Translations under genes and position numbers: made by a program
DNA from: a virus
Lineage: Duplodnaviria; Heunggongvirae; Uroviricota; Caudoviricetes
DNA length: 23,639 bases
IMG/VR virus record: IMGVR_UViG_2874945390_000005
Reading direction: 5' to 3' (one strand)
Notes under the pieces: model-generated
What the model saw: only the letters and a program-made list of their open reading frames with translations
Databases searched by the model: none
Told to the model about the DNA's origin: nothing
Shown: positions 5,128 to 8,354 of the stretch, piece by piece
Position numbering within the stretch: the first letter of the stretch is position 1
Layout of the letters: every line of letters begins with the position of its first letter

Positions 5128-5177
5128 CACTTCACCTCCTGCGGCGGTTCTGGTAGCGGCATCCAGTGGATTTGCCC

Positions 5178-6083
5178 CTATATTTCCAGACATCTGTTAT
5201 CACTTAACCCATTACAAGCCCGCTGCCGCAGATATTCCCGTGGCGAGCGATAACCCAGCGCACTATGCGGATGCCATTCGTTATAATGCTCGAACGCCTC
5301 TGCAAGGTTCTTTGCTGCCGTTAACCCGTTTGGTTTGGGCATGATACTGATGTAGTCACGCTTTATCGTTTTCACGAAGCTCTCTGCTATTCCGTTACTC
5401 TCCGGACTCCGCACCGCCGTGTTCTTCGGTTCAAGTCCCAACATCCGGGCGAACTGGCGTGTTTCATTAGCCCGGTAGCATGAACCATTATCCGTCAGCC
5501 ACTCCACTGGAGACGACGGAAGATCGTTGCCGAAGCGGCGTTCCACCGCTCCCAGCATGACGTCCTGTACTGTTTCACTGTTGAAGCCGCCGGTAGTCAC
5601 CGCCCAGTGCAGTGCCTCACGATCACAGCAGTCCAGCGCGAACGTGACACGCAGTCTCTCTCCGTTATCACAGCAGAACTCGAACCCGTCAGAGCACCAT
5701 CGCTGATTGCTTTCTTTCACGGCCACTCTGCCTGTATGTGCCCGTTTCGATGGCGGTACAGCAGGTTTTCGCTCAAGCAACAGCGCATTCTGGCGCATGA
5801 TCCGGTAAACACGTTTGGCATTGATCGCAGGCATACCATCAAGTTCTGCCTGTCTGCGAAGCAGCGCCCATACCCGACGATAACCATACGTGGGCAGCTC
5901 TCCGATAACATGGTGTATACGGAGAAGCACATCCGTATCATCAGTGTGACGACTGCGGCGGCCATCCATCCAGTCATCGGTTCGTCTGAGAATGACGTGC
6001 AACTGCGCACGCGACACCCGGAGACAACGGCTGACTAAGCTTACTCCCCATCCCCGGGCAATAAGGGCGCGTGCGCTATCCAC
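5178..6083 (-). CDS. insD: IS2 transposase OrfB (InsD)
   Basis: 301-aa [52 protein letters not shown]... matches IS2 InsD as recalled. Confidence 0.9.
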
Positions 6084-6363
6084 TTTTTTGCCCGTCCATA
6101 TTCAACGGCTTCTTTGAGGAGTTCATTTTCCATCGTTTTCTTGCCGAGCAGGCGCTGGAGTTCTTTAATCTGCTTCATGGTGGCAGCAAGTTCAGAGGCA
6201 GGAACAACCTGTTCTCCGGCGGCCACAGCAGTAAGACTTCCTTCCTGGTATTGCTTACGCCAGAGAAATAACTGGCTGGCTGCTACACCATGTTGCCGGG
6301 CAACGAGGGTGAACCGCCCCGGGAATCCTGGAGACTAAACTTCCTGAGAAAGAGGTAAACAGG

Positions 6364-6690
6364 ATGACTAAAAATACTCGTTTTTCCCCCGAAGTCCGTC
6401 AACGGGCAGTCCGTATGGTTCTGGAAAGTCAGGGCGAATATGACTCACAATGGGCGACAATTTGTTCCATTGCTCCAAAGATTGGCTGTACGCCGGAGAC
6501 TCTGCGTGTCTGGGTTCGCCAGCATGAGCGGGATACCGGGGGCGGTGATGGAGGGCTCACCACCGCTGAACGTCAGCGTCTGAAAGAGCTGGAGCGTGAA
6601 AATCGTGAACTGCGCCGCAGTAACGATATCCTTCGCCAGGCTTCCGCTTATTTTGCGAAGGCGGAGTTCGACCGCCTCTGGAAAAAATGA
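6364..6690 (+). CDS. IS629 OrfA
   Basis: 108-aa [45 protein letters not shown]..., IS3-family OrfA with HTH. Confidence 0.9.
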
Positions 6691-7573
6691 TGCCACTGCT
6701 GGATAAGCTGCGTGAGCAGTACGGGGGCGGACCGCTATGCAGCGAACTGCATATTGCCCCGTCAACGTATTACCACTGTCAGCAACAGCGACATCATCCG
6801 GATAAACGCAGTGCCCGTGCGCAGCGCGATGACTGGCTGAAGAAAGAGATACAGCGCGTATACGATGAAAATCACAAGGTATACGGTGTAAAGTCTGGCG
6901 TCAGTTGTTACGGGAAGGTATCAGAGTGGCCAGATGCACTGTGGCACGTCTCATGGCGGTTATGGGACTTGCCGGTGTTCTCCGGGGTAAAAAGGTCCGT
7001 ACGACCATCAGCCGGAAAGCCGTTGCCGCAGGCGACCGCGTAAACCGTCAGTTCGTGGCAGAACGACCTGACCAGCTGTGGGTGGCTGATTTTACTTACG
7101 TCAGCACATGGCAGGGCTTCGTCTATGTGGCGTTCATCATTGATGTGTTTGCCGGATACATCGTGGGGTGGCGGGTCTCATCGTCCATGGAAACGACATT
7201 CGTGCTGGATGCACTGGAGCAGGCGTTATGGGCCCGTCGACCGTCCGGCACGGTTCATCACAGTGATAAAGGTTCTCAGTATGTATCGCTGGCCTACACA
7301 CAGCGGCTTAAGGAAGCCGGATTACTGGCATCAACAGGAAGTACAGGCGACTCGTATGACAACGCGATGGCGGAGAGCATCAATGGTCTTTACAAAGCGG
7401 AGGTAATACACCGTAAGAGCTGGAAAAACCGTGCAGAAGTGGAACTGGCCACACTCACGTGGGTGGACTGGTATAACAATCGACGATTGCTGGAAAGGCT
7501 GGGCCATACTCCTCCGGCAGAAGCAGAAAAAGCTTATTATGCTTCCATCGGAAACGATGATCTGGCAGCCTGA
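6687..7573 (+). pseudogene. IS629 OrfB (DDE transposase) with an extra frameshift near 6885-6895
   Basis: ORF 6687..7043 begins [30 protein letters not shown]... and leaves the transposase frame after ...HKVYGV. ORF 6905..7573 resumes it ([16 protein letters not shown]...[10 protein letters not shown]...). The two frames are not joined in this copy. Confidence 0.8.
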
Positions 7574-7790
7574 GTTCACAGATAAAACACTCTCCAGGAA
7601 ACCCGGGGCGGTTCAGGGAGACCGTCATCCCCGGTTCAAAGCTCTGCTGAACAATTGCGATCTTTTCCTGTGTGGTACGCCGTCTGCGTTTCTCCGGCCC
7701 TAAGACATCAATCATCTGTTCTCCAATGACTAGTCTAAAAACTAGTATTAAGACTATCACTTATTTAAGTGATACTGGTTGTCTGGAGAT

Positions 7791-8354
7791 TCAGGGGGGC
7801 CAGTCTATCCAGTGGGTTGCCTGTTCAATACCATTACCTGGCTTAACCGTTACATCTCCACGCCGGAATGTACCTCCGGTATAGCGTGCGGAGCATATTA
7901 GCGGTTCAACCAGAGAGCTATCGAAATTCACCGAAATAAGTACGTTCTGGCCCTTTTCAGGCATTCGATCACTACAGCTTATCCAACCATCCGGAATTAC
8001 CGGAGAGTTGCCCGACATCTCATTCAACTTGTAAGTCTGGCTTACAGGTTTGGCTTCCAGTTCTGCTATGCGCTTTTTTGCTGTTTCCAGCTCGCTCAGC
8101 AGTGTCAGCACAGTAGCCGGATTGGCTGCGGCGATGAATTCAGCATTGGCCTGCTGTTCCATTTGGAAATCTTCATCGAAACCGCTTTCAGGATGCGCTC
8201 CTTCAATTCTGCAAATAGGAAGATATCCAACAACTTCACGGTGAATTAGCGCATCATCAGCATCAAGTTTCTCCTCTCCATATTCGAGCGACCACACACC
8301 CCACGTTGCTTTCTCTGCCTTTTCACGCAGTGCCTGATAGTCAATTTCGCTCAC
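7791..8354 (-). CDS. Ea22-like / DUF551-type phage protein; native C-terminus displaced by the IS2 insertion
   Basis: GTG at 8354-8352 preceded by AGGAGG with a 6-nt spacer. ...[15 protein letters not shown] then runs into IS2. Removing IS2 and one TCCAG copy restores ...THWMPLPEPPQEVK*, the DUF551 C-terminal motif as recalled. Confidence 0.6.

Follow-up and report, generated by a model that had tools for sequence, protein, structure and literature searches.

An IS629 element nested inside an IS2 element was found in the tail of a phage gene within a 23,639-nucleotide stretch of viral DNA (IMG/VR record IMGVR_UViG_2874945390_000005; Caudoviricetes), which is called the window here. We give a probability of about 90% to the reading that this nest of insertion sequences (IS) is the scar of a two-step insertion into the early-left region of a lambdoid prophage that is decaying in the genome of Shigella boydii CP026836.1. 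Window positions 1-11127 are 100% identical to locus L006 of CP026836.1 over the 11,127 bases compared, and this genome is named as S. boydii in PMC12817139. Positions 4700-8400 were read, and the element tips were located by script. Look-ups were conducted as exact-protein searches (24 blocks read) and in DNA collections restricted to E. coli and species-representative genomes. When the whole window was compared with complete E. coli genomes and phages, no record held at least 80% of it, and a lambdoid early region like that of Shiga toxin (Stx) phages was seen.

The outer element, IS2, and its target duplication were placed as follows:

5162-5166, no strand: TCCAG, first copy of the 5-bp IS2 target duplication, which is present as a single copy in empty-site alleles
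5167-7807, minus strand: IS2, with the tip of its right inverted repeat (IRR), TGGATTTGCCCC..., at 5167 and the tip of its left inverted repeat (IRL), ...GGCCAGTCTA, at 7807
5167-6309, minus strand: 3' portion of IS2, with the IRR at about 5167-5207, an intact insD/orfB at 5178-6083 and the remainder of insC towards its 3' end, including the A6G frameshift site
7619-7807, minus strand: 5' portion of IS2, with the IRL at about 7765-7807 and insC codons 1-34 (ATG at 7715)
7808-7812, no strand: TCCAG, second copy of the IS2 target duplication

After removal of IS629 and one GGG, IS2 measures 1332 bp, compared to 1331 bp for IS2A, an annotated mobile element of E. coli K-12 MG1655. The two align at 99.5% identity and differ by six substitutions and by an additional C in the C-run of the IRL. 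Their tips are the same (5'-TAGACTGG at the IRL and AAATCCA-3' at the IRR), and both have a 5-bp duplication and an intact insD. The terminal repeats are imperfect, about 41-42 bp long and carry the IS2 tip sequences, as expected of a member of IS2; a repeat finder recovered them as an inverted pair (I1) with a 33-nt gapless core. The 301-aa insD product differs from K-12 InsD1 by a single residue (D252N) and matches the Pfam families rve, rve_3 and HTH_21. In contrast to K-12 IS2A, insC of the present copy is split by IS629 after codon 34, the IRL has the extra C (possibly a sequencing error), and the copy is predicted not to be autonomous. An intact orfA-orfB pair is therefore missing, which makes this a defective IS2 rather than a different element. 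The first 34 codons of insC continue into the end of IS629 as an 86-aa open reading frame (ORF) at 7455-7715. By analogy with its relatives, such an IS2 would be unable to make OrfA or the OrfAB transposase and would depend on other copies to move. The C-run of the IRL (7794-7799) has six C in the window and five in K-12 and in seven other nested alleles.

The inner element, which we take to be IS629, judging from its OrfA sequence, its terminal repeats and the comparisons below, has these parts:

6307-6309, no strand: GGG, first copy of the 3-bp IS629 target duplication (IS2 nt 189-191)
6310-7615, plus strand: IS629, 1306-bp variant, which starts TGAACCGCCCCGGG... and ends ...CCCGGGGCGGTTCA
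6364-6690, plus strand: IS629 orfA, 108 aa, intact, with HTH_Tnp_1
6645-6761, plus strand: IS629 ALIL frameshift pseudoknot (Rfam, 116 bits), intact
6687-7043 and 6905-7573, plus strand: IS629 orfB, split, with a 4-bp deletion between 6887 and 6888
7616-7618, no strand: GGG, second copy of the IS629 target duplication

The GGG triplets are a true duplication. Reference IS2 has a single CCC at nt 189-191, within insC, while the window reads CCC-IS629-CCC with no insertion or deletion at the site, and the point of entry is insC codon 33/34. The terminal inverted repeats of IS629 (pair I2) are 25 nt long and 92% complementary, and both they and the flanking triplet agree with what defines the element (such repeats and a 3-4 bp duplication). 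The window copy has 99.5% identity to a copy of 1310 bp in E. coli CP053720, where the annotation goes no further than IS3 family; the differences are six substitutions and the 4-bp deletion. Compared to a 1310-bp copy from O157:H7, labelled IS1203 in RefSeq, the window copy has about 96% identity, with 50 substitutions and the same 4-bp gap. The 25-nt repeats, the 3-bp duplication, the 108-aa orfA, the ALIL pseudoknot and the rve-domain orfB are all shared with IS629/IS1203 of Shigella sonnei and E. coli O157:H7. The present copy differs in being 1306 bp rather than 1310 bp long and in the displacement of the catalytic part of OrfB: owing to the 4-bp deletion, the rve-domain part (6905-7573) sits in a third reading frame. 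With orfA and ALIL intact and orfB broken, the continuous orfA-ALIL-orfB arrangement is lost, and this is a defective member of IS629. Because of the deletion, it is predicted to be unable to make OrfAB. A second -1 ribosomal slip past the deletion was considered as a rescue of OrfAB and set aside as unsupported; the frames permit it (orfA in frame 1, OrfB-N in 0, OrfB-C in 2), and no slippery site is evident.

Two observations concern the surroundings of IS629 ends. Starting 14 nt past the right tip, IS2 has CCCCGGTTCA (7630-7639), which resembles the IS629 tip, and other sampled IS629 sites (L002, L017, L021, L024 and L030) have a GTTC(A) motif no more than 30 nt from the right end. This may hint at targeting of end-like sequences by IS629, a reading that was set aside, the sample being tiny and the pattern picked post hoc.

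The phage genes on either side of the nest are listed below:

4732-5127, minus strand: 131-aa phage gene, phrog_1621, intact, with an identical protein in 104 blocks of the public collection
5135-5140, minus strand: AGGAGG ribosome-binding site of the 131-aa gene, 26 nt from the IS2 tip
7791-8354, minus strand: truncated Ead/Ea22-DUF551 phage gene, with its last 11 codons (MPLPEPPQEVK) replaced by five IS2-encoded codons (IDWPP)

Deletion of 5167-7812, that is, IS2 and one TCCAG, joins ...ACCCACTGG to ATGCCGCTACCA... and yields a protein ending THWMPLPEPPQEVK at the stop codon. This rebuilt protein has the N-terminal domain of Ead/Ea22 and a full DUF551 (PF04448; residues 130-197 align to profile positions 1-68 of 68, 79 bits). 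Empty alleles of the site agree with the reconstruction. In two E. coli relatives (L004 and L005), the DNA of the site reads as a single CATCCAGTGGGTT, and two further loci (L009 and L012) have this prophage with an exact empty site of 30 nt and a DUF551 gene of 193 aa. The preliminary description of the window had proposed that removing the element restores the DUF551 C-terminus, and the full-length Pfam match and the empty sites of L009 and L012 bear this out. Other details of that description required correction. It had the element landing on the overlap between the stop and start codons of the two genes, but the insertion lies 35-39 nt upstream of this overlap, within the DUF551 coding tail. 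The rebuilt overlap is not ATGA but TGATG, with one nucleotide shared, and the RefSeq-annotated genes of L004 and L005 likewise share one base. The AGGAGG of the 131-aa gene does survive, at 26 nt from the IS2 tip instead of the 35 nt first given. The truncated DUF551 gene is called as 187 aa in CP026836.1; an exact search with the 194-aa ORF, taken from its GTG, gave no match, the public call using a later GTG. Both phage proteins belong to PHROG families of unknown function.

An exact look-up of the 131-aa protein returned ten loci. All four junctions of the nest are identical in eight independent assemblies (L006, L007, L008, L010, L013, L014, L015 and L027), and the ancestral nest was 2640 bp long (1331 + 3 + 1306). 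Later decay varies among the genomes that carry it:

L007: 1069-bp deletion inside IS629
L014 (CP026877): further 20-bp deletion, equivalent to window 6984-7003, which together with the 4-bp deletion restores an in-frame 287-aa OrfB ORF lacking eight residues
L008: single-base insertions or deletions
CP026836.1 only: extra C in the IRL

As the genome is IS-rich and was assembled from long reads, we considered whether repeat collapse or a chimeric join had created the nest. The single-base homopolymer differences between assemblies would fit such an artefact, and they may themselves be long-read errors; exact agreement at four junctions in eight independent assemblies, with both target duplications intact, makes the possibility negligible. 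If matching flanks had arisen by chance at independently defined ends, the probability would be 1/1024 for the 5-bp repeat and 1/64 for the 3-bp repeat, and the comparative data settle the point anyway. Reference alignments, empty-site alleles and the eight assemblies concur on an IS629 nested in IS2 with both target duplications intact, as first described. Alignment to K-12 IS2A and to the two 1310-bp copies did not move the ends of either element, so that the repeats do flank them, and the disruption of insC by IS629 likewise holds.

Nests of this general kind occur elsewhere. In E. coli CP131_Sichuan (CP053720) and 19451123 (CP191548), IS629 likewise lies inside insC of an IS2 in the same relative orientation, for a total of 2644 bp. 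These nests differ from the present one in having a TTT duplication 170 bp away, a full 1310-bp IS629 and an IS2 that lies inside istA of IS21. Same-sized E. coli nests (H26 and H43) were considered as products of the same event and were ruled out by the different insertion point and the TTT duplication; they are independent events.

The order of events that we propose has two steps. First, IS2 entered the 3' end of the Ead/Ea22-DUF551 gene and duplicated TCCAG, a step that we regard as established; it has the orientation of the phage genes, and its IRR precedes the ATG of the 131-aa gene by 39 nt. Second, the 1306-bp IS629 would have entered IS2 in the opposite orientation at insC codon 33/34, duplicating GGG, a step whose topology is observed and whose location is deduced. 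The IS629 that inserted was probably already defective and would have been moved by transposase from other copies. Since IS629 is enclosed by IS2 and flanked by a duplication of its own, it entered IS2 DNA, and this much of the order given in the preliminary description holds. That IS2 arrived first and IS629 followed in place is the simplest and better-supported history, parsimonious rather than proven, as no IS2-only allele has been seen.

Another possible history is that the composite formed at another locus and was then moved into the prophage as one 2.64-kb unit by the IS2 transposase of other copies. Both IS2 tips are intact, many IS2 copies in Shigella could supply the transposase, and transposition of the unit would leave the same TCCAG duplication; the lack of an IS2-only intermediate among the ten loci also fits. 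We consider this history unlikely, given where the junction between the elements is found. The 86-aa product that is specific to the junction was found on just four contigs, each of them in the present prophage context. An 80-nt probe across the IS2-IS629 junction did not match contiguously anywhere in 5,426 complete E. coli genomes, and species-representative genomes did not contain the exact junction pattern. Four places in E. coli that appeared to cover the probe were rejected, each consisting of two pieces spread over 208-372 bp and not the window junction.

Several points weigh against the two-step reading as a whole. No allele with IS2 alone was found at the site among the ten loci, and the order of IS2 then IS629 rests here on topology and on the composite not being found elsewhere. 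The look-ups were limited to the exact-protein searches and the E. coli and species-representative DNA collections named above. The extra C in the IRL may be a mutation private to CP026836.1 or a homopolymer error of long-read (PacBio) sequencing, and it counts here together with similar single-base insertions and deletions. Finally, non-autonomy and polarity (see below) were derived from the known behaviour of the IS3 family.

The 4-bp deletion in orfB has a wider distribution than the nest itself. The preliminary description was correct that OrfB is frameshifted, and the cause is this deletion; it had also treated the lesion as the copy's own, and that part does not stand. Among the nested alleles, all that still have the affected part of IS629 carry the deletion. 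The 206-aa C-terminal product of OrfB, like a 30-nt marker that crosses the deletion, is also found at unrelated loci (L017, L020, L021, L023, L024 and L025). The element with this deletion lies next to F-type tra genes in L017, L021 and L023 and within another prophage in L020, while L024 is a complete 1306-bp IS629 that has a GGC duplication of its own and differs from the window copy by 21 substitutions. At 99% identity or more, the deletion-spanning probe found only 16 records among complete E. coli genomes. Plasmids of about 245-295 kb make up many of those listed and, judged from their size, may be invasion plasmids. The 1306-bp IS629 is a subfamily present in Shigella-type genomes and a few E. 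coli records, and the deletion is not private to the window copy. It would be expected to be absent from both 1310-bp comparison copies, as it is, had it arisen in the window copy after insertion. Such an origin is highly improbable when the same deletion is found in all nested alleles retaining the region, at unrelated loci, one of them with a GGC duplication, and in the 16 E. coli records. The deletion must therefore predate the present insertion or have spread by gene conversion.

The presence of this variant with its own duplications at no fewer than two unrelated sites (GGG in IS2 here and GGC in L024) and in six other sequence contexts suggests how it may have spread. We tentatively propose, at somewhat less than even odds, that the 1306-bp IS629 is a non-autonomous subfamily that intact IS629 has moved in trans on repeated occasions within the lineage of Shigella and enteroinvasive E. 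coli, behaving like a parasite rather than a dead copy. Alternatively, the deletion could have spread through gene conversion among IS copies.

The effects of the nest on the phage genes can be predicted from its position. The DUF551 protein would lose its conserved W-x-PLPEPP tail, and the 131-aa gene would lose its translational coupling. The latter gene now stands behind 2.6 kb of foreign DNA, in which IS629 runs against the operon, and, as with other elements of this kind, transcripts from the early-left promoter would be subject to polarity. Nothing suggests a new function arising from the insertion.

We also considered whether the insertion rewires expression, with the 131-aa gene driven by an IS2-derived or hybrid promoter. 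The geometry is suitable, since the IRR faces the 131-aa gene at 39 nt from its ATG with the ribosome-binding site intact, and fusion promoters of IS2 are documented: the outward -35 hexamer in the IRR has made them elsewhere, for example at ampC (PMC9330008). A scan of 4600-8500 with a sigma-70-like consensus found no promoter-like hexamer pair on either strand, compared to 3.2 expected by chance, and thus no outward -35 in the IS end with a suitably spaced -10 in the flank. By eye, the flank of the IRR, CTGGATGCC, is a poor match to a -10, and IS629, running in the opposite direction, now separates the own promoter of IS2 from insD. Rewiring is for these reasons quite improbable, more so than the arrival of the composite as one unit.

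Other parts of the prophage are also rearranged. At 2713-3854, an IS630-family element (HTH_23/DDE_3 ORFs, flanked by TA) splits an ORF6N antirepressor-like gene, which is 141 aa in the window and 260 aa in L007 and L009. Two IS600 copies lie in the same orientation at 8654-9918 and 17376-18639. The latter has a TAC duplication and splits recT; the former has no clean duplication (CTT vs TTG), which suggests recombination between IS copies. A segment at about 8414-19985, with genes for a helicase, a cI-like repressor and Rha as well as gam, recT and exo, is inverted compared to L010 (CP026875), in which recT-exo is followed directly by the Ead/DUF551 gene on the same strand. A further IS3-family element lies on the minus strand at 20380-21584 and contains an rve-domain ORF of 279 aa preceded by one of 112 aa. 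Three Rfam matches score above the gathering threshold: isrK (14998-15074) and C4 antisense RNA (15099-15186, plus strand), just upstream of a Rha-type gene, and sRNA-Xcc1 (2051-2134, minus strand), inside the ORF6N/P22_AR_C gene. In addition to the nest, the prophage bears the IS630-family element, two IS600, another IS3-family element and the inverted segment, and it is very probably defective.

All the components described here are of known kinds: IS2, IS629, their target duplications and the nesting of one IS in another are ordinary for Shigella. The reference chromosomes of Shigella have 229-348 IS insertions, and IS2 and IS600 are expanded in all species (Hawkey et al. 2020, PMC7373316). 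The occurrence of several IS families within one 23.6-kb stretch agrees with these numbers. As in the IS-riddled prophage remnants of that study, IS2, IS600 and elements of the IS630 and IS3 types interrupt phage genes here, and we see no substantive difference between those remnants and the present prophage.

Beyond annotation, the importance of the finding is small. In S. boydii CP026836.1, two pseudogenised IS elements and one truncated phage gene now have exact boundaries, and the nest serves as a clean worked example of IS-in-IS nesting with both filled and empty alleles. The common junctions could mark a lineage of Shigella strains bearing this prophage. That the IS629 with the 4-bp deletion has spread points, in a small way, to trans-mobilisation or gene conversion during the expansion of IS elements in Shigella.

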